64,000 nt of DNA from positions 2,240,001 to 2,304,000 of the forward strand of contig OZ257142.1 of the NCBI GenBank assembly GCA_965279035.1, given 5' to 3'. The notes under the pieces are model-generated. The model searched no databases, was not told where the DNA came from, and worked only from the letters and a program-made list of their open reading frames with translations. The first letter of the stretch is position 1. Each line of letters starts with the position of its first letter. The DNA comes from Bacteroidia bacterium. GTDB taxonomy: Bacteria; Bacteroidota; Bacteroidia; M30B66. Both the position numbers and the translations under genes were made by a program. Below, one piece after another: positions 2 to 11,986 of this stretch.

Positions 2-1291
2 CCGGTTTCACTAACTAATTTCGATGCAGGAGTAAATGCACTTGCGAACTCATACATACGCGGCGCCTACACTTGGATTAGCCTAGATGCATTTAATAAT
101 GGCTGTACGCCTGTTTCGGGAAATCTACAATACTTCTACGACAGTCATTTGCAGTTTATCAGCGCTGTACCACCTCCCGATTTCATTGGCGCCAATACCT
201 TATCATGGAATTTTACTGATTTATCTTACGATTCACCCCATTTGATGCCTTTACTCCGAATGAAAGTTGACAGTACAATACTTGTCGGAACTGAAATTTG
301 TTTTACAGCTTCGATCGGTTCACTAGCAGGTGATGTGGATTCTAGCAATAATTCAATATCATATTGCTCTAATGTTGTGAGTTCATACGATCCGAATTAC
401 ATCTCAGTTTTCCCAGCAGGGAAATGTGTTCCAGCTTATGTTGATGCCAACGAGCGACTTACCTATACAATCCGATTTCAGAATACAGGAACGTATCAGG
501 CAGAAAACATCTATTTGATCGACTCACTTCCATCAGCGCTCAACATGAATTCTGTGAGAGTAACTGGACAAAGTCACGAATCGATACTAACGGAAATTCT
601 TCCAGGAAATGTTCTGAAATTCAGGTTCGATGATATTTATTTACCTGATAGTGCTACTAATGAATCGGCCAGTCATGGATATGTTTCGTTTGATGTGTTG
701 CCGGTTAACGGAGTTGCCGATGGTACTGAAATCTCCAACAAAGCCGGAATTTATTTTGATTTTAATGATCCAGTTTATACAAACACCGTTTCAAATACCC
801 TTATTGCTGAAATTCCTATGGTTAACACCGATGTGGTTCAGTCAAATCTAACACTTACTGCCACGGCAAGCGGAGTTACATATCAATGGATCGATTGCAG
901 CAACCAAAATCAACCCATTGAAGGTGAAACGAGTCAGACATTTCAGGCACCCTTAAATGGCAACTATGCTGTGATTATTTCCGACGGCATTTGCGAAGGT
1001 ACTTCCACATGTTACAGTACAACCTTATTAGGTTTAATCTCATCTCCATCAAACATCCTTTCAATTTATCCGAATCCTTCAGAAAGGGGCTCACTGGTAA
1101 TAGAAGCGTTAGGACTAAATGGACCTTTTCAAATCGAAGTTTTAACTGTTACTGGTCAAACAATTTTGAGCAAATCATCTAACGGAATTGAGAAGACCAT
1201 CCTAGAATTGCCGGATGTTGCAGGTATTTATTTCATTAAAGCAGTAAAGGAGAATCGGTTAATTTCTGTTTCTAGGGTAATCAGAAACTGA
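2..1291 (+). CDS. T9SS type A sorting-domain secreted protein with DUF11/DUF7619-like domain (5' partial)
   Basis: Frame is open from position 2 (PVSLTNFDAG...) into the 149..1291 ORF. SYDPN...YTIRFQNTG...IYFDFN motif; C-terminal IYPNP...GIYFIK T9SS CTD. Confidence 0.8.
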   Translation, partial: PVSLTNFDAGVNALANSYIRGAYTWISLDAFNNGCTPVSGNLQYFYDSHLQFISAVPPPDFIGANTLSWNFTDLSYDSPHLMPLLRMKVDSTILVGTEICFTASIGSLAGDVDSSNNSISYCSNVVSSYDPNYISVFPAGKCVPAYVDANERLTYTIRFQNTGTYQAENIYLIDSLPSALNMNSVRVTGQSHESILTEILPGNVLKFRFDDIYLPDSATNESASHGYVSFDVLPVNGVADGTEISNKAGIYFDFNDPVYTNTVSNTLIAEIPMVNTDVVQSNLTLTATASGVTYQWIDCSNQNQPIEGETSQTFQAPLNGNYAVIISDGICEGTSTCYSTTLLGLISSPSNILSIYPNPSERGSLVIEALGLNGPFQIEVLTVTGQTILSKSSNGIEKTILELPDVAGIYFIKAVKENRLISVSRVIRN

Positions 1292-1804
1292 TCGGTTTTG
1301 ATTCTTTTTATGTTAAGTTTCTAGTAATCTGAGATTGCATTTTCTACTAAAATATTGTTTTTATAATTTCAGTAAACATGCTTGTATTGGTCCGGCAATT
1401 TGCGATTACACGAAACTGTTGAACCCAATTTAAAAACTAGAGAAATGTTTTATTCAGAATTGTCCTTTAGAACGAATATGCCTGCGTATTGCAATTTATT
1501 TGTTAAGTGTCGTACAGATTGGAAAAGCTAACATTTATTTTCCCCGTCAAACTTCCCTTACCAAATGTAAATTCCTTGGTGAACTTAAAATAAGGGGAGA
1601 TTTTTCGATGGTCACGTTGCTATAATCTTAACCGTATTCTTTTTCATCGGGCAGACTGATTTTCTTTAAAATGAAATATGTTTTTAAAATGAAATTATTA
1701 CTGAAGGATAATTCATTTTCAATGGATAAAAAACGTTTCAAGATTAAAATCAAATAATATATTTAGCGAAAGAATAAATAAAGCATGTTTTCGTTTTCAA
1801 TTTC

Positions 1805-2488
1805 ATGCAATTCAAATTTCTATTTTATTTAATCATTTTATTTCTATTTACCACAACAATATCTGCTCAAGGAATCATCAATAAAACAGCTCATATTGCT
1901 TATTATCACAATCAAATTGAATGGAATAAATTCAATGGATTCGCACTATCTGGATCATTAGATATTCATCGGAAAAAGAATAGAAAAACCGAATTGTCGC
2001 TAGGGTTTCAGTATAAACAAACATGGAAGAGTCAGCAATTCAGCAATCCATACGATACCGTTCAAAGTGCTATGGAAAATCCTACATATCCAATATGGCC
2101 ATATGAACGAACCATTTTAACCAAAGAAATAGCATTCCTTTTCGGACTTAAATGGAAATTAGTTCAACGCAAATACTACTCTTTAAAAGCTTCTATAGGA
2201 TTAATCGGCAATTATTATTTGCAATACCGTATGCATGGCTATGGCTATATTCCAGTTTCGCCAATTAGTCCTATGTATTCACCTGATCCTTTTCCCTTTC
2301 GTTACAGTTACAAAGGGAAAGGCAATCCCGAGTCATTCAGTTTTTGTTCCTATGCTTCGATAGAACTTGCTATTGGATCCTCAAAAAACAAGTACCTACC
2401 CGTATTAGTGGGGCAAATATGCAAAGATGTTTTATATGAAAATTGGTGTTATTTAATTGGATTAGGAATAAAGACGAATAGAAAATAG
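1805..2488 (+). CDS. hypothetical exported protein, possibly outer-membrane beta-barrel
   Basis: 227-aa ORF with a signal peptide (TISA|Q) and alternating aromatic/Gly strands. Confidence 0.55.
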   Translation: MQFKFLFYLIILFLFTTTISAQGIINKTAHIAYYHNQIEWNKFNGFALSGSLDIHRKKNRKTELSLGFQYKQTWKSQQFSNPYDTVQSAMENPTYPIWPYERTILTKEIAFLFGLKWKLVQRKYYSLKASIGLIGNYYLQYRMHGYGYIPVSPISPMYSPDPFPFRYSYKGKGNPESFSFCSYASIELAIGSSKNKYLPVLVGQICKDVLYENWCYLIGLGIKTNRK

Positions 2489-2536
2489 ATTACGAATTAA
2501 CAATTACAAATCTAATTCTCTCTACTAAATTCTTTT

Positions 2537-2571
2537 TACTCTATACTTTTTACTTTATACTCTCTACTGCT
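2537..2571 (+). repeat. 5x 7-bp tandem TACTnnn repeat
   Basis: tactcta tactttt tacttta tactctc tactgct, read directly from the sequence. Confidence 0.6.
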
Positions 2572-2584
2572 CTATCTTTATCCC

Positions 2585-3640
2585 ATGGAAGATCAATCGC
2601 CAAAGCGAAGTCGACGTGTGCGTTATTCAGGGACACATCCCAAAGCGTTTAAGGAGAAATACAAGGAATTACAACCTGAACATTACGCCGATGATGTAGC
2701 GAAGGTAATGCAGCAGGGAAGAACCCCAGCAGGAATGCATCGTTCTATTTGTGTGAACGAAATCATGGAATTTTTGCAACTCCAACCGGGACAAATTGGA
2801 ATGGATGCCACTTTAGGTTATGGTGGACATAGTTTGGAAATTCTAAAACGTATCACACCAGGAGGAAAGTTGTATGCCGTGGATGTTGATCCATTTGAAC
2901 TTCCTCGCACGCGTGAACGATTGGCTGCCCAAGGCTTTGGAGAAGATGTGCTTTGTATTCTAAAGATGAATTTTGCTGAAATCGATCAGATTATTGCAAT
3001 GGCGGGAAAACTGAATTTCGTCATGGCTGATTTAGGTGTTTCATCTATGCAGATTGATAATCCTGATCGGGGATTTTCCTTTAAAGTAGAAGGGCCGCTC
3101 GACTTACGACTCAACCCGAAAAGCGGTAAACCTGTTTCTGCTTTTTTGAAGACCGTAACACAATCAAAACTTGAAGAAATATTGCAACTTAATTCCGATG
3201 AGCCACATGCTGCGCTGATTTCTAAACTTATCGTTTCGAAAATTACTAGTGGTAAACCCATCGAAACGACAACTCAATTACAACAAACAATTCAAGAAGC
3301 AATCTCTTTTATTCCAGCTGAAACGCAAAAGGAAGAAGTGAAGAAAGCGTGTCAACGTTGTTTTCAAGCATTAAGAATTGAAGTGAACAATGAGTTTGGT
3401 GTACTTGATAAATTCTTAGATAAACTTCCTGCAGCGCTTCAACCTGGTGGACGAATAGCCATACTTTCCTTTCATTCGGGTGAAGATAGGCGGGTAAAAA
3501 AGTCCTTTCAACAGAATCTTCGATTAGGTATTTATAGTGCTATTTCGGAAGAACCAATTCGTCCAAGTGCCGAAGAATCATTTACTAATCCCCGAGCTCG
3601 TTCGGCAAAATTGCGTTGGGCTATCCTGAACTCGGAATGA
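2585..3640 (+). CDS. rsmH: RsmH/MraW-family 16S rRNA m4C methyltransferase (stand-alone form with N-terminal extension)
   Basis: DATLGYGGH, DLGVSSMQ, GPLDLR, FQALRIEVN, SFHSGEDR and NPRARSAKLR motifs. Confidence 0.85.
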   Translation: MEDQSPKRSRRVRYSGTHPKAFKEKYKELQPEHYADDVAKVMQQGRTPAGMHRSICVNEIMEFLQLQPGQIGMDATLGYGGHSLEILKRITPGGKLYAVDVDPFELPRTRERLAAQGFGEDVLCILKMNFAEIDQIIAMAGKLNFVMADLGVSSMQIDNPDRGFSFKVEGPLDLRLNPKSGKPVSAFLKTVTQSKLEEILQLNSDEPHAALISKLIVSKITSGKPIETTTQLQQTIQEAISFIPAETQKEEVKKACQRCFQALRIEVNNEFGVLDKFLDKLPAALQPGGRIAILSFHSGEDRRVKKSFQQNLRLGIYSAISEEPIRPSAEESFTNPRARSAKLRWAILNSE

Positions 3641-3646
3641 ATCCAT

Positions 3647-3654
3647 TAAATTTG
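3647..3654 (+). promoter_or_regulatory. Bacteroidota -7 promoter box for the metal operon
   Basis: TAAATTTG matches TAnnTTTG, 15 bp before the ATG at 3670. Confidence 0.5.
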
Positions 3655-3669
3655 TTCAACATTTAAAAA

Positions 3670-3891
3670 ATGAAATCAATTCAATTTAGTACGAATATAA
3701 ATTGTGGAAGCTGTGTGAGAGCTGTAACTCCTACATTGAATCAACTTGCTGGTAAAGGAAATTGGAGTGTTGATACCGAAAATCCTCAAAAAATTTTAAC
3801 TCTTATTCAAGACAATCTCGATGAAAATCGCGTTATTCAAGAATTGAAATTCCTTGGTTATACCGCAAATCCAATCCAAGCACTGGTTTAA
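3670..3891 (+). CDS. cytoplasmic heavy-metal-associated (HMA, CopZ-like) chaperone
   Basis: 73 aa with an INCGSC CxxC motif and C-terminal LGY. Confidence 0.8.
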   Translation: MKSIQFSTNINCGSCVRAVTPTLNQLAGKGNWSVDTENPQKILTLIQDNLDENRVIQELKFLGYTANPIQALV

Positions 3892-4269
3892 ATGTTTAAG
3901 CGAATCCTACTTATTCCCATTTTATTGCTTTACTTAATCAGTATTGCAGGAATTCGTATGCAAGCGCATTATTGTCACCAAGAATTTAGCGAACTCAGTT
4001 TTAATCCATTTCACCAAGCTGAGTGCGGATGTTCAAAAGAAGAAAAGTCCTGCTGTGATGATGCTCAATTTCTACTTCAAATTACTACAGTCTATGCACC
4101 ATCACCAGTCATTACAACACCCGATGTGCAATTGATTTCTTCAATCATCTCCAGCTTTGAAGAATTCCATTTTCAATCAATCACACCAATCCAACCCAAT
4201 CCTTTTTGTTTCTCCAACGAATTTCCTCCTCCAGATAAAATAGTTTCTTGCAGACAATTCAAGATTTGA
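3892..4269 (+). CDS. HYC_CC_PP-family protein
   Basis: N-terminal hydrophobic segment, then HYC, CGC, SCC and C-terminal PPP; lies upstream of a TonB receptor. Confidence 0.75.
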   Translation: MFKRILLIPILLLYLISIAGIRMQAHYCHQEFSELSFNPFHQAECGCSKEEKSCCDDAQFLLQITTVYAPSPVITTPDVQLISSIISSFEEFHFQSITPIQPNPFCFSNEFPPPDKIVSCRQFKI

Positions 4270-4320
4270 GATAAAGAAATCCTAACTGATTTTAATTCAT
4301 TCATCTCAACTCTTCAACTC

Positions 4321-4674
4321 ATGAAAACCATTTTATTATCGGGTATTTTTACCCTATTTTTCCTTTCAAGCAATGCACAAGTAATTTCTGAAACTCTTTT
4401 AGTAGCGGGCAATTGCGAAATGTGTAAAAAACACATTGAAACAGCTGTCGATCTAAAAGGTGTTAAAAAAGCAAGCTGGGATTCTAATACGAAACAGCTT
4501 GCAATCCAATACGATTCAAAGAAAATATCTAGGGATAAAATCATATCAGCCATATCTGAAGCGGGCTACGATTCCGAATGGATGAAAGCCGATTCGGCTG
4601 CCTATCAGAAATTAGATAAATGCTGTCAATTCGAGCGAATAGAACCAACAAAAAAAGAATCCGGAAAACCCTAA
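4321..4674 (+). CDS. periplasmic HMA-domain metal-binding protein
   Basis: Signal peptide (SNA|Q), GNCEMC motif, AGY, and a second Cys pair (LDKCCQF). Confidence 0.8.
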   Translation: MKTILLSGIFTLFFLSSNAQVISETLLVAGNCEMCKKHIETAVDLKGVKKASWDSNTKQLAIQYDSKKISRDKIISAISEAGYDSEWMKADSAAYQKLDKCCQFERIEPTKKESGKP

Positions 4675-4718
4675 ATTCATTTCCGATTTGTGATGGATTT
4701 TATTCAATTTCAAGAATC

Positions 4719-6950
4719 ATGAAAACACATGCCATCTTTGTGCTGTTTTTCTTTTTTCTTACTACACATTTATCGTCCCAAACCATTGAGGGGAAAGTGT
4801 TGCAGGAAGAAGAAGATAGAACTATTTCGCCTGTTTATAATGCTACAATTTATTGGCAAGGAACTTCCACTTCCACACAAAGCGATAGTTTAGGTTTTTT
4901 TCAAATTCAAGATCTTCACCTAAATTCTAAACTAATTATTTCATACACAGGCTTTATTGCTGATACGCTTACTCTTTCTGCCAACGATTCCATTACCGTA
5001 AAACTGCATTCTAAAACGCATCTTAAAACGGTTGAGATTAGTGTTCGTCAATCATCAACCTACTTATCTTCTTTAAATCCAATCAACACCGAAATACTCA
5101 CTACAGCCGAATTAAATAAAGCTGCTTGTTGCAATTTATCGGAGAGTTTTGAAACCAATAATTCGGTTGATGTCAGTAGCACAGATGCTGTAACTGGAAC
5201 CAAGAAAATTACCATGCTTGGTTTGTCGGGAATCTACACACAAATCACTCAAGAGAATCTACCTTCACTTCGTGGATTGCTTGGCAGTTCTGGATTACAG
5301 CAATTGCCAGGAACCTGGATTGAATCCATACAAATTAGCAAAGGTGTTGGTTCAGTGGCGAATGGTTTTGAATCGATAACAGGTCAAATCAACATCGAAT
5401 TAAAGAAGCCTTTTGATAAAGAAACATTCATGCTGAACGGCTATTTCAATCAAATGAATCGTTCCGAATTGAACTTGAATAAATCAATTATCCTGAATAA
5501 AAAATGGGCAACCTTGCTTTTTGTTCATGGCGATTACATGAAAAATCCCATTGATCGGAATAAGGATAAATTCATGGATGTTCCCGATGGAAATCAATGG
5601 AATGTGCTTAATCGCTGGATGTATCGAAGTGGTAAAAATTTATCTGCACAGTTTGGAGTTCAAGCAGTTGGCGACAAACGACGCTCAGGAACAGCGCATC
5701 AAGGAACTGCTTTCGATGTAGTGCATGATTGGCGCTTTAACAAAGAAGTTTACCGTATAGATGCATTTGGAAAACTCGGATATATTTTTCCTCAAAAGCC
5801 CAATACAAGCATCGGATTTTTAGGGAATACGCAAGTAAACCGACAAAGGACAGTTCTCGGAAATCGTTGGTACGACGCAGATCAGCAAAGTGCTTATGGA
5901 AGTATTATTTTTCAAAGCTATTTCGGAAATTCAAATCATAAATACCGTCTCGGAACAAATGTCCAATACGATCGAATGGAAGAGTATTTTAGCGGGCAGC
6001 CATTTCTTCGGAAAGAATTTGTTGCAGGTGCCTTTTTCGAATACACGTTAACTGCTGGTAAATCGGTTATTGTTGGTGGAATTCGAGCCGATCATAATTC
6101 ACTCTTTGGAAGTTTTATCACGCCACGTTTACACTATAAATACCAAGTATCAGAGAAAACAACGTTTCGCATTTCGGGTGGAAGAGGACAGAGAACAGCT
6201 AATATTATTGAAGAAAACCTTTCCTATTTAGTAAGTTCTCGTTTGCTCATTCTTCAGCAAAATCAAGCTGCATTGGGCAAAGCCTATGGGTTCTTACCTG
6301 AAATAGCTTGGAATAGCGGAATAGGAATGAATACCTCATTCACTATTTTCGGACAAGAAGGAAGCATTTCAGCTGATGTATTTGAAACCTGGTTTCAGCG
6401 TCAAGTTGTTATTGACGTAGACAATTCCCCTCATCAATTAAGAATATATAATCTTGATGGGAAATCACAAGCAATCAGTTCGCAAGTCGACTACAATCAA
6501 GCAATCGGGCGCCGTTTCGACTTACGTATTTCCTATAAATACACCTATACACAAACCCAATATCTAATTGGAAATCGTTCACGGCCTTTTGTATCTCCGC
6601 ATCGTGCAATCCTAAATCTTGCATTTCATTCACGTCAAGATAAATGGTTGATCGACTTTACTGCAAATTATATCAGCTCTAAACGGCTTCCTTCAAGTGC
6701 TTCCAATCCTTCGGCTTTTCAAATGCCTCTGAATTCGCCCAATTATGTCTTAGATAACACGCAAATCACTCGGAATATTAAACGTTGGTCATTCTATATA
6801 GGAGTTGAAAATTTATTGGATGTATATCAACTGCAGATGATTGTTTCACCCGATGATCCACATTCCCAATATTTCGATGCTTCCTATATCTGGGGACCCA
6901 ATTTTGGACGCATGATTTACACTGGATTTCGATTTAAAATCGCTTCCTAA
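4719..6950 (+). CDS. TonB-dependent receptor (metal-operon type)
   Basis: Likely start MKTHAIF at 4719. CarboxypepD_reg-like N-domain, plug with KAACCNLSESFE and IESIQISKG, and barrel C-terminus GRMIYTGFRFKI. Confidence 0.85.
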   Translation: MKTHAIFVLFFFFLTTHLSSQTIEGKVLQEEEDRTISPVYNATIYWQGTSTSTQSDSLGFFQIQDLHLNSKLIISYTGFIADTLTLSANDSITVKLHSKTHLKTVEISVRQSSTYLSSLNPINTEILTTAELNKAACCNLSESFETNNSVDVSSTDAVTGTKKITMLGLSGIYTQITQENLPSLRGLLGSSGLQQLPGTWIESIQISKGVGSVANGFESITGQINIELKKPFDKETFMLNGYFNQMNRSELNLNKSIILNKKWATLLFVHGDYMKNPIDRNKDKFMDVPDGNQWNVLNRWMYRSGKNLSAQFGVQAVGDKRRSGTAHQGTAFDVVHDWRFNKEVYRIDAFGKLGYIFPQKPNTSIGFLGNTQVNRQRTVLGNRWYDADQQSAYGSIIFQSYFGNSNHKYRLGTNVQYDRMEEYFSGQPFLRKEFVAGAFFEYTLTAGKSVIVGGIRADHNSLFGSFITPRLHYKYQVSEKTTFRISGGRGQRTANIIEENLSYLVSSRLLILQQNQAALGKAYGFLPEIAWNSGIGMNTSFTIFGQEGSISADVFETWFQRQVVIDVDNSPHQLRIYNLDGKSQAISSQVDYNQAIGRRFDLRISYKYTYTQTQYLIGNRSRPFVSPHRAILNLAFHSRQDKWLIDFTANYISSKRLPSSASNPSAFQMPLNSPNYVLDNTQITRNIKRWSFYIGVENLLDVYQLQMIVSPDDPHSQYFDASYIWGPNFGRMIYTGFRFKIAS

Positions 6951-6980
6951 AATTTCGAATACAGCAATCATTTCTTAAGC

Positions 6981-7083
6981 AGTCGAATTGGCATTTCGTT
7001 TTTCAACGAAGCGCCAGAATGGCTGATAATGAAGGGCTTTCCTGACAATTTTACGATATTCGATAGAGGGCTGTATTGTTGCA
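6981..7083 (+). promoter_or_regulatory. putative clpB regulatory region: three TGNCA-N3-TGNCA-like sites and a GG-N10-GC sigma54-like box
   Basis: AGTCGAATTGGCA (6981), CGCCAGAATGGCT (7012), TGACAATTTTACG (7043); GGCTGTATTGTTGCA at 7069-7083. Confidence 0.45.
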
Positions 7084-7111
7084 AAGGGCAGTTCGACATA
7101 AATTATTTCAC

Positions 7112-9730
7112 ATGAATTTTAACCAGTTTACTATTAAAGCGCAGGAGGCCGTGCAACAAGCACAGCAATTAGCTGCTCAGAATGGACAACAAGCTATCGA
7201 AACCGGACACTTGCTCAAAGGTGTTTTGGAAGTAGATGAGAATGTATTGCCTTATTTATTTAAGAAATTAAGTGTCAACTCACCTGCATTGATTGCTGCA
7301 TTGGATAGCATCGTTAAAGGATATCCCAAAGTTTCAGGAGGAACACCTTATTTATCGAATACGGCACAAGCAGCTTTAACCAAAGCAACTACCTTGATGC
7401 AGGAAATGAAAGATGAATTCGTTTCCATCGAACATATTGCCTTAGGAATTTTGGCTGGAAATGATCCCGTAGCGCGACTTTTAAAAGATTCGGGATTGAA
7501 TGATAAAGATATGCGTGCAGCCGTTGCCGAATTACGCAAAGGTGCTCGTGTGACTTCTCAAACAAGCGAAGACACGTACAACGCACTAAACAAATACGCC
7601 AAAAACCTGAACGAAATGGCCCGTAATGGCAAGCTCGATCCAGTGATTGGTCGTGATGAGGAAATTCGTCGTGTGCTGCAAATTTTGAGTCGTCGTACTA
7701 AAAACAATCCCATTTTAATTGGTGAACCAGGAGTTGGTAAAACTGCCATCGCCGAAGGTTTGGCGCATCGGATTGTAAATGGCGATGTTCCCGAAAATTT
7801 AAAAAGTAAGCAGATTTATTCACTCGATATGGGTGCATTAATCGCTGGTGCAAAATACAAAGGTGAATTTGAAGAACGTCTCAAATCGGTTGTGAAAGAA
7901 GTGACCGAATCGGATGGCGATATCGTTTTATTCATTGATGAAATTCACACACTTGTTGGTGCTGGAGGTGGCGAAGGAGCAATGGATGCGGCAAACATTT
8001 TAAAGCCTGCTTTATCACGCGGTGAGTTACGTGCTATTGGTGCAACTACACTCAACGAATACCAGAAATATTTCGAAAAAGACAAAGCTTTGGAACGTCG
8101 TTTCCAAAAGGTGTTGATTGATGAACCTGATGCTGCCGATGCTATTTCGATTTTACGTGGATTGAAAGAGAAATACGAAAATCACCACAAAGTGCTCATT
8201 AAAGATGAAGCAATTATTGCCGCAGTTGAAATGAGTCAACGGTATATCAACGATCGTTTCTTGCCCGATAAAGCCATCGATTTAATTGATGAAGCTGCAT
8301 CGAAACTTCGGATGGAAATTAATTCCTTACCTGAAGAATTAGATGAATTAGAACGTAAAATTCGTCAGCTCGAAATTGAGCGTGAGGCCATCAAACGGGA
8401 GAATGATCAAAAGAAATTATCTTCATTAAGTGAAGAAATTGCCAACCTAGAACAGGATCGTTCTTCCCTTCGTTCAAAATGGCAAAGTGAAAAAGATGTG
8501 CTCGACCAAATTCAGAAAAACAAACAGCTCATCGACGATTATAAATTCGAAGCAGAGCAAGCCGAACGCAGTGGAGATTTTGGAAAAGTAGCTGAATTAC
8601 GCTATGGAAAAATCAAAATTGCAGAAGCCGAAATTGAAACATTACGTGCTCAATTAATCGATACTCAAAGCGGCAAAGCGATGATTAAAGAGGAAGTGGA
8701 TGCCGAAGATATTGCAGGTGTTGTAAGCCGTTGGACTGGAATTCCAGTTTCCAGCATGTTGCAAAGTGAGCGGGAGAAATTACTCAACCTCGAAACCGAA
8801 TTGCACAAACGTGTAGTAGGGCAGGAGGAAGCGATTGAAGCGGTGTCTGATGCGATTCGTCGTGCCCGTGCTGGTTTGCAGGACAAAAAACGCCCAATTG
8901 GATCTTTCATTTTCCTTGGAACAACCGGTGTTGGAAAAACAGAATTAGCCAAAGCGCTTGCTGAGTTTCTCTTCAATAACGATCAAGCCATGACGCGAAT
9001 CGATATGAGTGAATATCAAGAACGTCACACGGTAAGTCGCTTGGTTGGTGCACCTCCTGGATATGTTGGTTATGAAGAAGGCGGACAATTAACCGAAGCC
9101 GTTCGTCGCAAGCCATACAGTGTGGTGTTATTGGATGAAATTGAAAAAGCGCATCCGGATGTTTTCAATATTCTGCTTCAGGTTTTGGATGATGGTCGTT
9201 TGACTGATAATAAAGGTCGTGTGGTGAATTTTAAAAATACCATCATCATTATGACTTCGAATATTGGTTCTCACTTGATTCAAGAGAGTTTCGATAAAAT
9301 TGGAGATAAAGATATCGACGAAGTAATTGCTGAAGCGAAAGTGAATGTGTTTGAACTGTTGAAGAAAACGATTCGTCCCGAGTTTTTAAATCGAATTGAT
9401 GATATCATCATGTTTCAACCACTCAGTCGCGAAAATGTGGAAGAGATTGTTCGCATGCAATTCAAAGGTGTTCAAGCATTGTTGATTGAACAAGGATTTC
9501 ATATTGAAGCAACCGAAGAAGCTATCGATTGGTTAGCTCAATTGGGCTACGATCCACAATTTGGCGCTCGTCCGGTGAAACGATTGTTTCAGAAAAAAGT
9601 GCTGAATGAATTGAGTAAGCAGATTTTAGCTGGAAGTATCAGTCAAGAACAACCCATTGTGCTCGATATGGTTGAGAATCATCTATTCTTCAGAAATAAA
9701 AAAGAAGAGACTTTGATATCTTCCAATTAA
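7112..9730 (+). CDS. clpB: ATP-dependent chaperone ClpB
   Basis: MNFNQFT start, two AAA+ modules ([16 protein letters not shown]), coiled-coil M domain and GARP motif. Confidence 0.97.
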
Positions 9731-9803
9731 TTCCAAAACAATACGCAGGTATTCCTGTTTATTCAATTCATAGTGTAGCAACTACGTTTTAGTTTTCTTC
9801 ATC

Positions 9804-9835
9804 AAGCATCGGGTCATTCCGGTGCTTTTTGTTTT
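9804..9835 (+). terminator. intrinsic terminator after clpB
   Basis: aagcatcgg-gtcatt-ccggtgctt followed by a T-run. Confidence 0.7.
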
Positions 9836-9910
9836 ATAGATATTGATAGATTTTGCATTCCACATCTTCAATTAATTAATTCATTACTTAGTACTATCAA
9901 TTTTAGATCG

Positions 9911-11986
9911 ATGAAAAATCACTACTTCCTCATATTACTCCTTCTCATTTCTTTTTCATGCTCTTCTTTGAAAAAAGAAGATACTTTCAAAATTACTTCA
10001 CCTTCCAAAAATTTGGCAATTGCATTCCACCTAAATGATAAAGGAATTGCCCAATATCAGGTCTTTTACAAAGATGAAGTAGTAATTGATACTTCTTCTT
10101 TGGGATTCGATTTAAAAGATGCACCAGCTATGTTTTCAGGTTTTGAAATTACAGGACATCAAGTAGATTCTCTCAACGAAACATGGGAGCAACCTTGGGG
10201 CGAACAACGTATGGTAAAAAATCATTACAACGAATTAATTGTCAACCTGCAAGAGAAAAATGAACCTCATCGTAAAATGAATCTTCTATTTCGTGCTTAT
10301 GATGATGGTCTTGCTTTTCGATACGATTTCCCTGAACAGGAGAACCTCAAGGAAATGACCATTTTGGATGAAAATACTTTTTTCCGGTTGAAGGAAGATT
10401 ATACCTGTTGGTGGGCACCCGGCGATTGGGACATAACCGAACATTTATATACGATGAGTCCCTTCTCAAAAATTAATGCCTTGAAGAAACGGAATCATCC
10501 GAGTTTAGGACAAACGTACATTCCCGAAAATGCAGTCAATACGCCTCTTACCATGCGTTCGAAATCAGGAATGCATATCAGTATTCACGAAGCGGCTTTG
10601 TACAATTATTCGGATATGACCTTGAAAGTAGATACGACAAATCTGGTACTTCAATCGGAATTGGTTGGTTCGGATCGATTGGGTTATAAAGCCAAATTGA
10701 CTGTTCCATTTCAAACGCCCTGGCGGATGATACTCATTAGTCCAAACGCAGCAGGATTGGTCGATTCACGCATGATTTTAAATTTGAACGAGCCGAATAA
10801 AGTAGGAGATGTTTCTTGGTTTAAACCAATGAAATACACTGGCATTTGGTGGGAAATGCATTTAGGGAAATCGAGTTGGGACATGGCCAGTGGAAAGCAT
10901 GGCGCCACAACGGCAAATGCTAAAAAGTACATCGACTTTACAGCTAAAAATGGATTAGGAGGTGTGTTGATCGAAGGATGGAATACTGGCTGGGAACATT
11001 GGATTGGATTTGATGATCGTGAAGGTGTGTTTGATTTTGTAACTCCCTATGCCGATTACAATTTAGAAGAAGTGGTGAACTACGCCCATTCGAAAAATAT
11101 AGAAATCATCATGCATCACGAAACGTCGTCTGCACCTCAGACTTATGAAAAGCAATTGGATACGGCATTTGCTCTCATGAAGCGGTTGAATTTGCACACA
11201 GTTAAAACCGGATATGTAGGTAAAATTTTACCCAAAGGCGAATATCATCATGGACAATGGATGATCAATCATTATCAAAAAGTGGTTGAAACCGCTGCGA
11301 AATATCACATTGCGGTAGATGCTCATGAGCCAATAAAGGGCACGGGAATTCAGCGTACTTGGCCCAATTTCGTTTCACGAGAAGGCATGCGTGGACAGGA
11401 ATTTAATGCTTGGTCGAGCGATGGTGGAAATCCTCCCGATCATTTGCCTAATGTGGTTTTTACGCGTATGTTGAGTGGTCCGTTTGATTTTACTCCGGGA
11501 GTTTTCAATATTAAATTGAAGCCGTATAAAGAGCACAATCAAGTGAGCACCACGTTAGCGCAGCAATTGGCTTTGTATGTAGTTATTTATAGTCCAGTTC
11601 AAATGGCTTGCGACCTGATAGAAAACTACGAAGGTCAACCTGGATTTCAATTTATTCGTGATGTTGGAACCGATTGGGAAACTTCTAAAACCTTAAAAGG
11701 TGAAGTCGGCGATTATGTAACGATTGTGCGCGAAGAAAAGAAAACGGGAAATTGGTTTTTAGGATCAATTACCGATGAAAATGCTCGTGATATTTCAATT
11801 GATTTTAGTTTTCTACCCGCTGGAATTGAATTTCAAACGGATATTTATAAGGACGGCCTTGATGCCCATTGGGACAGTAATCCCACTAGTTTATCCATTG
11901 AACATTTAGTTATAAATTCAAAAAGTAATATTACCTTTCATTTAGCTCCCGGAGGTGGATTAGCCATAGCGATGAAGAGAAAATAA
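9911..11986 (+). CDS. glycoside hydrolase family 97 (SusB-like alpha-glucosidase), lipoprotein
   Basis: Lipobox SFSC; KYTGIWWEMH, VLIEGWN, MHHET, HEP, REGMRGQE and DFTPG motifs. Confidence 0.92.
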   Translation: MKNHYFLILLLLISFSCSSLKKEDTFKITSPSKNLAIAFHLNDKGIAQYQVFYKDEVVIDTSSLGFDLKDAPAMFSGFEITGHQVDSLNETWEQPWGEQRMVKNHYNELIVNLQEKNEPHRKMNLLFRAYDDGLAFRYDFPEQENLKEMTILDENTFFRLKEDYTCWWAPGDWDITEHLYTMSPFSKINALKKRNHPSLGQTYIPENAVNTPLTMRSKSGMHISIHEAALYNYSDMTLKVDTTNLVLQSELVGSDRLGYKAKLTVPFQTPWRMILISPNAAGLVDSRMILNLNEPNKVGDVSWFKPMKYTGIWWEMHLGKSSWDMASGKHGATTANAKKYIDFTAKNGLGGVLIEGWNTGWEHWIGFDDREGVFDFVTPYADYNLEEVVNYAHSKNIEIIMHHETSSAPQTYEKQLDTAFALMKRLNLHTVKTGYVGKILPKGEYHHGQWMINHYQKVVETAAKYHIAVDAHEPIKGTGIQRTWPNFVSREGMRGQEFNAWSSDGGNPPDHLPNVVFTRMLSGPFDFTPGVFNIKLKPYKEHNQVSTTLAQQLALYVVIYSPVQMACDLIENYEGQPGFQFIRDVGTDWETSKTLKGEVGDYVTIVREEKKTGNWFLGSITDENARDISIDFSFLPAGIEFQTDIYKDGLDAHWDSNPTSLSIEHLVINSKSNITFHLAPGGGLAIAMKRK

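Follow-up and report, generated by a model that had tools for sequence, protein, structure and literature searches.

Two small exported proteins of the DUF2946 family, CutF and CruR, are the described systems closest to the gene considered here, and their properties are summarized below. CutF of Rhodobacter capsulatus, encoded in cutFOG, carries four Cys residues in its exported part and a C-terminal PPP, its Pro-rich motif being confined to the last 10 residues (Öztürk et al., 2023; PMC9973294), and it acts only in cis (PMC9973294; bioRxiv 10.1101/2025.02.05.636593). The start region of the gene after cutF is hidden by a stem-loop, which the ribosome stalled on the leader melts (bioRxiv 10.1101/2025.02.05.636593). 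In Bordetella pertussis, CruR (Bp2923) lies ahead of an operon for a TonB-dependent transporter and acts through Rho; it harbors a CXXC motif and an RAPP sequence three residues ahead of its C-terminal end, and the 45 amino acids (aa) that separate its Cys motif from the PP are kept within one or two residues and matter for regulation (PMC9426467). The cruR-bfrG intergenic region measures 162 nucleotides (nt) (PMC9973294). The subject of the present analysis is a 125-aa open reading frame (ORF) of the HYC_CC_PP family, found in 64,000 nt of the genome of a Bacteroidia bacterium of the lineage M30B66 (assembly GCA_965279035.1, contig OZ257142.1, positions 2,240,001-2,304,000); this whole stretch is called the window, and all coordinates refer to it.

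CutF-like proteins have been surveyed by iterated search combined with simple filters, namely a length below 150 aa, a PP in the last 15 residues, an N-terminal signal and a same-strand neighbor at less than 1000 nt. In all, 5,334 proteins were collected, 19% of them (40% after normalization) in Bacteroidota, where the neighboring genes are of the RND, OEP and TonB-like kinds (Öztürk et al., 2023; PMC9973294). With its 125 aa, a PPP 12-14 residues from its end, a hydrophobic helix at residues 2-19 and the next gene 51 nt downstream, the window ORF lies within those filters, and the functional idea discussed below is already in print for Bacteroidota CutF-like proteins (PMC9973294).

A preliminary description of this DNA had presented the ORF as a metal-sensing, ribosome-stalling leader of the HMA and TonB-dependent receptor genes that follow it. 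The gene neighborhood, a fixed spacing in the protein and an RNA helix at the end of the ORF speak for the general idea, whereas a leader placed first in its operon, a rut element and a PPP-triggered stall are not supported. The reading that we prefer, while placing it slightly short of an even chance, is that the HYC_CC_PP ORF is a cis-acting co-translational metal sensor that gates downstream translation, similar to CutF and CruR without being their kin. The start of the next gene would be masked by a helix between the stop and start regions until a ribosome reaches the end of the ORF. The His/Cys cluster, outside the translocon and some 57-75 residues away from the peptidyl-transferase centre, would bind metal or not, and its metal state would set the dwell time of the ribosome at the ORF end. 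In the window, the HMA and receptor genes would be controlled in this manner, and the upstream CopZ-like gene would not, since the HYC_CC_PP gene is the second of its unit. Copper is suggested as the sensed metal solely by the CxxC motifs of the HMA neighbors. The parts of the ORF and of the junction that enter into this reading are as follows.

3892-4269, + strand: HYC_CC_PP / DUF8199 ORF, 125 aa (NF047658 hidden Markov model, PF26622)
3895-3948, + strand: N-terminal hydrophobic helix, residues 2-19, signal peptide or signal anchor (Kyte-Doolittle, AlphaFold2)
3967-4056, + strand: His/Cys region with H26-Y-C28-H29, C45-G-C47 and S53-C54-C55 (sequence, alignment, AlphaFold2)
4057-4224, + strand: linker from CC to PPP, holding the C-rich tract 4141-4230 (spacing, identity comparison)
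4225-4233, + strand: PPP, residues 112-114, codons CCT CCT CCA, in the context EFPPP
4234-4269, + strand: C-terminal tail DKIVSCRQFKI (11 residues) and TGA stop codon (4267-4269)
4261-4278, + strand: predicted 5' arm of the helix, including the stop codon (duplex prediction, -10.9 kcal/mol)
4296-4314, + strand: predicted 3' arm of the helix, whose end lies 6 nt upstream of the next ATG (4321) (duplex prediction)

The export signal, the HYCH, CGC and SCC motifs and the PPP near the stop codon, after which 11 residues follow, are thus all where they had been reported, as judged from hydropathy, structure prediction and alignment.

In the window, the stop arm pairs better at the start region of the next gene than with any of 12 interior control segments of that gene. 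An equivalent helix is present in L001, a Flavobacteriales assembly that was located through its receptor gene and is the closest relative found (receptor identity 70%); in it, GG/CC takes the place of AAG/CUU, and the pairing extends to the next ATG. Pairing across the family was investigated in a sample of 70 family loci from 401 Bacteroidota genomes (L005 included; L074 dropped, the wrong ORF having been picked), by matching the stop region (-14 to +9) of each gene with its intergenic region and comparing its own arm with the arms of other loci. Own arms yielded duplexes of -10.95 kcal/mol, as opposed to -8.77 kcal/mol with foreign arms, and were better in 75% of 69 loci (p = 1.3e-6). In 48 of the 70 loci, the end of the 3' arm fell between -11 and +9 nt relative to the predicted next start, compared with 33% for foreign arms (p = 1.6e-9). 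Over 67 loci, the stop arm formed more stable pairs at the start region than it did inside the next gene (-8.95 vs. -7.52, p = 0.0015), even though GC content is 23% in the former and 43% in the latter, and it also surpassed other arms of the ORF at the start region (-8.95 vs. -5.90, p = 3e-8). L005/L001 were omitted from the foreign-arm energy and interior-segment tests and included, with a corrected start, in the test of 3'-arm position. No effect was found at 25 other same-strand junctions of these loci (-8.91 vs. -8.38, p = 0.92; 11/25 vs. 43%), and the helix is therefore specific to the family junctions. Compensatory variants are found between loci, as illustrated by TGATTTTAATGT/ACATTAAAATCA in L007 and TAATTTATTTGT/ACAAATAAATTA in L014.

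The position of this helix bears on where a ribosome would have to be in order to open it. With the usual ribosome footprint, a ribosome whose P and A sites hold the PPP (4228-4233) would reach to approximately position 4245, about 15 nt short of the 5' arm at 4261, whereas a ribosome with the stop codon in its A site would cover the mRNA to approximately 4280, and hence the whole 5' arm. Finishing the ORF, and not pausing on PPP, would therefore free the next start. The polyproline stall that had been put forward as the trigger loses its place on this account, and also because an xP sequence stands in its stead in six of 71 proteins. Bacteroidota mRNAs are generally devoid of Shine-Dalgarno sequences, and the start region, rather than such a sequence, would therefore be masked here.

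Spacing was compared in 71 proteins, those of the 70 loci and that of the window, 69 of which could be scored for the distance from CC to P(P). Conservation of the Cys-to-PP distance, which the preliminary description had proposed as a check, is observed: the last CC precedes P(P) by 53-62 aa in 68 of the 69 (modes 56, 57 and 60), the lone outlier of 7 being an artefact of a second CC in L015, and the 150 best representatives, taken as an independent set, show a spacing of 54-63 in 149 cases and a PP in 143. The distance between HYC and CC varies from 28 to 50. Between the window protein and that of L001, identity amounts to 43/66 (65%) over residues 1-66, 8/42 (19%) over residues 67-108 and 8/17 in the tail. 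The linker is of constant length and unconserved sequence.

The distance between PP and stop codon had been proposed for the same check; 10-20 residues follow the PP (modes 15, 16 and 12), the 11 of the window, ending in FKI, representing the shortest common type. When the sequences are anchored at the C-terminus, the last three positions are the best conserved of the final 24, with F at -3 in 56 of the 71 proteins, L, R or Y at -2, and I at -1 in 50. The conserved tail of the family ends with F-[L/R/Y]-[I/A] directly at the stop codon. The synonymous codons of these three residues vary (TTC 30, TTT 25, five Leu codons), and the constraint therefore acts on the peptide. The stop codon is TGA in 40 of the 71 family genes, whereas TGA ends 25 of the 131 ORFs that reach 200 aa or more in these loci (odds ratio 5.5, p = 1e-7). 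Among the 40 genes ending with TGA, 34 read TGAT; the preference for TGA may stem from the helix, its complement TCA lying near the next start, or from termination kinetics.

A more specific form of the sensor can be drawn from these features, and we regard it as speculative and rather unlikely. An arrest peptide composed of PP, 10-16 residues, F-[L/R]-I and the stop codon (TGA in 56%) would hold the ribosome on the stop codon and not on PP, the sole placement in which it would cover the 5' arm and the next start would be freed; the PP would then lie deep in the exit tunnel, with the His/Cys4 cluster about 70 residues back just past the translocon, and metal would set the time during which the start stays open. 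If this proved true, it would amount to a counterpart of CutF that arose independently, spans the phylum and is suited to mRNAs lacking Shine-Dalgarno sequences.

The family model has matches in 116 of the 401 sampled Bacteroidota genomes, 106 of which exceed the cut-off, with up to 5 copies per genome, and a profile of 52 members retrieved 12,004 representative clusters at E <= 0.001 among 1.84 billion proteins. In 69 of the 70 loci, the next ORF is on the same strand, at a distance of 28-291 nt (median 93). By Pfam, the next ORF is distributed as follows.

30 of 70 loci: RND pump (ACR_tran)
15 of 70 loci: TonB-dependent receptor
16 of 70 loci: small HMA, HMBD or DUF3347 protein
1 of 70 loci: AraC regulator
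1 of 70 loci: beta-propeller
7 of 70 loci: no Pfam match at 1e-5

A transport or metal-binding domain of these kinds is encoded at the first or second position downstream in 65 of the 70 loci, and paralogues in one genome each adjoin metal genes of their own. Placement in front of importers and exporters alike fits a sensor better than a dedicated partner. Upstream neighbors are mixed, being divergent or more than 150 nt away in 38 of 69 loci; those on the same strand include some metal genes (P-type ATPases, HMA, HMA-MauE) and many unrelated ones.

The genes that surround the ORF in the window are the following.

2585-3640, + strand: rsmH, ending 29 nt upstream of the ATG of the CopZ-like gene
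3670-3891, + strand: small CopZ-like HMA gene, 73 aa, with a CGSC (CxxC) motif and no signal peptide (NCBIfam CopZ match weak, E 0.0016, below cut-off)
4321-4674, + strand: exported HMA protein, 117 aa, with a signal peptide and a CEMC motif (Pfam HMA, E 1.1e-8; NCBIfam CopZ/MerP-type matches below their cut-offs)
4719-6950, + strand: TonB-dependent receptor with an N-terminal CarboxypepD_reg-like domain and a Plug domain (Pfam)
3' of the receptor gene and ending before the terminator candidate 9804-9827, + strand: clpB

The TAA codon of the CopZ-like gene directly abuts the ATG of the HYC_CC_PP ORF (TAAATG, 3889-3894), so that the latter is not first in its unit, as the leader of the preliminary description had been supposed to be. 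The junction points to termination-reinitiation coupling between the two genes, and the CopZ-like gene is probably the first of the unit. In L001, a divergent gene is followed by the CopZ-like, HYC_CC_PP, HMA and receptor genes in the order of the window, and the unit is therefore taken to consist of these four. The CopZ-like proteins of the two loci align without gaps at 53% identity, and the exported HMA proteins are 62% identical. Small HMA or HMA-sized ORFs also lie upstream of the family gene in L001/L005, L057 and L050.

The promoter consensus of Bacteroidota at -7 is TAnnTTTG. A sequence that fits it, TAAATTTG, is found at 3647-3654, 15 nt upstream of the CopZ-like start codon, as a candidate promoter element. 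The HYC_CC_PP and HMA genes are separated by 51 nt. A terminator scan of positions 1200-10000 returned 5 sites in all, compared with 6.7 expected from shuffles, and just two candidates on the + strand. One of them, 4341-4354, is a weak terminator-like hairpin with a 5-bp stem and a T-run, situated 20 nt into the second HMA gene among its signal-peptide codons; the other, 9804-9827, is a good candidate located after clpB. The scan thus found no convincing intrinsic terminator in the operon, the weak hairpin being the sole site from the ORF to the end of the receptor gene, and the view that none precedes the HMA and receptor genes is upheld.

The assignment of the ORF to HYC_CC_PP is likewise sustained, with a score of 31.1 bits against the NF047658 cut-off of 28 and residues 11-115 covered. 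An identical protein carries a precomputed match to PF26622, which is DUF8199, the nearest Atlas clusters of the window protein, compared by language-model features, are 100% DUF8199 (score 0.96), and a hidden Markov model built from A1 finds this ORF as its sole match in the window (E 5e-25). It is nevertheless a divergent member of low score, compared with up to 154 bits elsewhere. The hydrophobic segment, with a mean Kyte-Doolittle value of 2.36 over 19 aa, is followed in order by the name-giving motifs H26-Y-C28, C54-C55 and P112-P114, which fall on conserved columns of an alignment of 52 members; all of these members have C28, C45, C54 and C55, while conservation of H26, P112 and P113 reaches 90% or more. 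As for close homologues of the 125-aa protein, a word search returned only the protein itself, and a pattern scan of genome contigs returned none. With a Pfam set that does not contain PF26622, scans gave nothing at E <= 10 for the window protein and scattered chance matches only for the 52 relatives.

The AlphaFold2 model, computed with the 52-sequence alignment, has a mean predicted local distance difference test (pLDDT) value of 76.7 and a predicted template modeling score of 0.43. It comprises a helix at residues 2-19 (pLDDT ~90) and strands 21-28, 31-36 and 55-62 in one sheet, with block means of 82-93, then a helix at 79-93 of intermediate confidence, and residues 100-125, which include the PPP and tail, at pLDDT 49-63. 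According to this model, the product would be a small Cys/His-bearing sheet that is held at the membrane and continues into an ill-defined linker and tail. A search of PDB folds with the model gave no matches at E <= 0.001.

A number of observations weigh against a sensor that gates translation. The N-terminal domain is confidently modeled as a small sheet, as would suit a protein that folds stably. Conservation of the tail at the protein level extends to its final residue, which a simple stall at PP does not explain, and the PP itself, present in 65 of the 71 proteins, is reduced to a single P (RPF, VPF, TPL or VPD) in the other six. The family gene does not always head its unit, nor does it in the window, a same-strand ORF lying at most 150 nt upstream in 31 of 69 loci. 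With regard to the helix, the junctions fold no more stably than shuffled sequences (z = -0.69 in the window and -1.29 in L001), RNAalifold returned no consensus structure for 11 aligned junctions, an alignment that is visibly inconsistent between subgroups, and a control in which the 5' arm was shifted 45 nt upstream was not significant (p = 0.15). The best duplex is not at the next start in 22 of the 70 loci, next-gene starts having been called mechanically as the first ATG, GTG or TTG. Ordinary translational coupling of two partner proteins would show the same stop-start helix. Lastly, the literature search found no paper on HYC_CC_PP or DUF8199, a family without a described function.

Several of these points are what one would expect of a stable accessory protein that binds metal in the periplasm or at a membrane anchor, for instance as a chaperone or a thiol/redox partner, and that would act in trans alongside the HMA protein, the pump or the receptor; the helix would then provide ordinary coupling for proportion. 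We consider this explanation a strong competitor of the cis-acting sensor, though somewhat less probable. It would account for the confidently modeled N-terminal 62 residues, in which a helix and a three-stranded sheet bear the invariant Cys and the His, and for a tail whose peptide is conserved while its codons vary, as a functional C-terminus would show. Co-location with the HMA, HMBD and DUF3347 metal-binding proteins is also in keeping with it, as is the translational coupling to the CopZ-like gene in the window. However, a single small protein would have to serve partners ranging from outer-membrane receptors to inner-membrane RND pumps and soluble HMA proteins, and half of it is an unconserved linker of fixed length, with model confidence falling to 49-63 towards the C-terminus. 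The failure of the fold search to find a solved structure like the model also argues against an accessory protein, as do the several paralogues per genome, each beside its own metal genes.

A further explanation follows the preliminary description more closely, in that a stall at PPP would combine with a C-rich rut tract (4141-4230 and 4291-4320), and, as with CruR, Rho would end transcription ahead of the HMA and receptor genes in a metal-dependent manner. The base counts on which it was founded are exact, with 29 C and 5 G at 4141-4230 and 9 C and 0 G at 4291-4320. The tract is real and extreme for the window: 4141-4230 is the 90-nt stretch with the largest excess of C over G on the + strand of the 64 kb, a level reached by 0.013% of 90-nt stretches, and only 6 peaks with |C-G| >= 24 occur when either strand is counted. 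Relative to an expectation computed from the protein sequence and the codon usage of the 31 long ORFs of the window, C-minus-G in this tract is 24, compared with 15.1 (standard deviation 3.1; P = 0.003), and its third positions hold 11 C and 0 G. About two thirds of the C excess thus follows from a linker rich in Pro, Ser, Thr, Ile and Gln, and a modest synonymous excess remains. A synonymous skew, which had been put forward as a check, is therefore present in the window, but across the family the third-position effect is small (0.14 vs. 0.05). In the second HMA gene (4321-4671), C-G is +1, compared with -14.4 expected (P = 0.006), a similar synonymous C excess, and the preference for C is therefore not confined to the HYC_CC_PP ORF.

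Mean C/G skew across the family is +0.18 in the 3' half of the ORF, -0.10 in its 5' half and -0.07 in the next gene, which is in agreement with a Rho-dependent mechanism, as are the lack of a convincing intrinsic terminator in the operon and the mode of action of CruR (PMC9426467). The window, however, ranks first of the 71 for skew (0.49), whereas its closest homologue, with the same gene order, has a value of -0.01, with 33 C and 34 G in the 3' half. A skew that is absent from the closest homologue and that largely reflects amino-acid composition is not regarded as marking a conserved rut site. The excess in the HMA gene suggests a local codon preference, and the tract was picked after looking at the sequence, with most of it located 5' of the PPP. 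Moreover, the 51-nt intergenic region is taken up by the helix, as opposed to the 162 nt described for cruR-bfrG (PMC9973294), and no Arg precedes the PP as it does in RAPP. Altogether, termination by Rho following a PPP stall appears improbable.

That the ORF encodes the precursor of a secreted, chalkophore-like metal-binding peptide taken up by the neighboring receptor is very improbable, for although the protein is small, exported, Cys-rich and encoded beside a TonB-dependent receptor gene, the annotation of the window places no modification or export enzymes in the unit, the same family heads efflux pump operons in 30 of the 70 loci, and conservation falls on the N-terminal anchor region and the very C-terminus instead of on a core peptide.

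The ORF had been described as a non-homologous equivalent of the DUF2946 leaders, and this separation is corroborated as far as sequence and profile comparisons reach. None of the 52 family members matches PF11162 (DUF2946) at E <= 10, nor does the window protein, and hhalign of the family with 13 Bacteroidota DUF2946-like proteins gave a probability of 7.7%, over the signal region only. The window protein has CGC and CC, and EFPPP followed by 11 residues, with no CXXC and no RAPP near the stop. Apart from DUF8199, look-alikes in the Atlas were DUF2946 (23% of one cluster), DUF6769 and DUF6660, all of them weak, with scores of 0.89-0.90 and ~100 shared features. For the DUF2946 lead, the profile-profile comparison found nothing to back a kinship. 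DUF6769 and DUF6660 are mostly from Bacteroidota and may be further small leader-like families.

Of 301 Bacteroidota genomes, 22 gave weak matches to the PF11162 model, with 4 exceeding the cut-off, and in those with both positions listed (G055, G095, G111, G140 and G205) the matches lie on other contigs or far from the HYC_CC_PP match. Thirteen of the matches are small signal-bearing proteins with R[AG]PP, of the CruR type (L077, L079-L086, L088, L091, L093 and L098), at loci separate from the HYC_CC_PP genes. They have CxxC in 11 of the 13, two reading CALH, as well as a His-rich stretch, and R[AG]PP stands 2-9 residues before the stop in 12 of the 13. The next gene encodes a TonB receptor in 2 of 12 and a CobW GTPase in 1 of 12.

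If the HYC_CC_PP ORF indeed acts in cis as a co-translational sensor, periplasmic metal sensing by a nascent exported chain would not be peculiar to the proteobacterial DUF2946 proteins, and the solution would have been reached at least twice. A function would be attributed to a large unknown family that heads operons for both metal import and metal export, and the switching of Bacteroidota metal operons without an obvious nearby regulator would be explained. The fixed linker of 56-60 residues would constitute a natural ruler of the path from ribosome to translocon. The gain for the window alone is modest, given that its protein is a typical, rather divergent member.

Among better known arrest systems, TnaC and SecM, with arrest near their own stop codon or release by the force of export, resemble the HYC_CC_PP family in a conserved C-terminus of about 17-20 residues at a fixed distance from the stop and in downstream control by ribosome position, arrest being only proposed for the family and no likeness in sequence being expected. 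CruR shares with it the location of the gene before a TonB-receptor operon, the Cys motif, the C-terminal PP and a conserved ruler between Cys and PP (mostly 56-60 aa here). It is distinguished from the window ORF by its sequence motifs, EFPPP, CGC and CC being found here with no Arg before the PP, and by the junction, which in the window is a 51-nt intergenic region with a helix and in which a rut-like skew is not conserved. The likeness to CutF lies in a small, exported, Cys-bearing product with a C-terminal PPP and in a stop-start helix near the next start, with cis action proposed only. In contrast with CutF, a conserved tail of 10-20 residues comes after the PP in this family, with 11 of them in the window protein, and the neighbors encode receptors, RND pumps and HMA proteins instead of a multicopper oxidase, the window ORF being second in its unit. 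A further difference is that the stop-codon region itself is predicted to pair with the next start region, so that a ribosome on the PPP would remain short of the helix.

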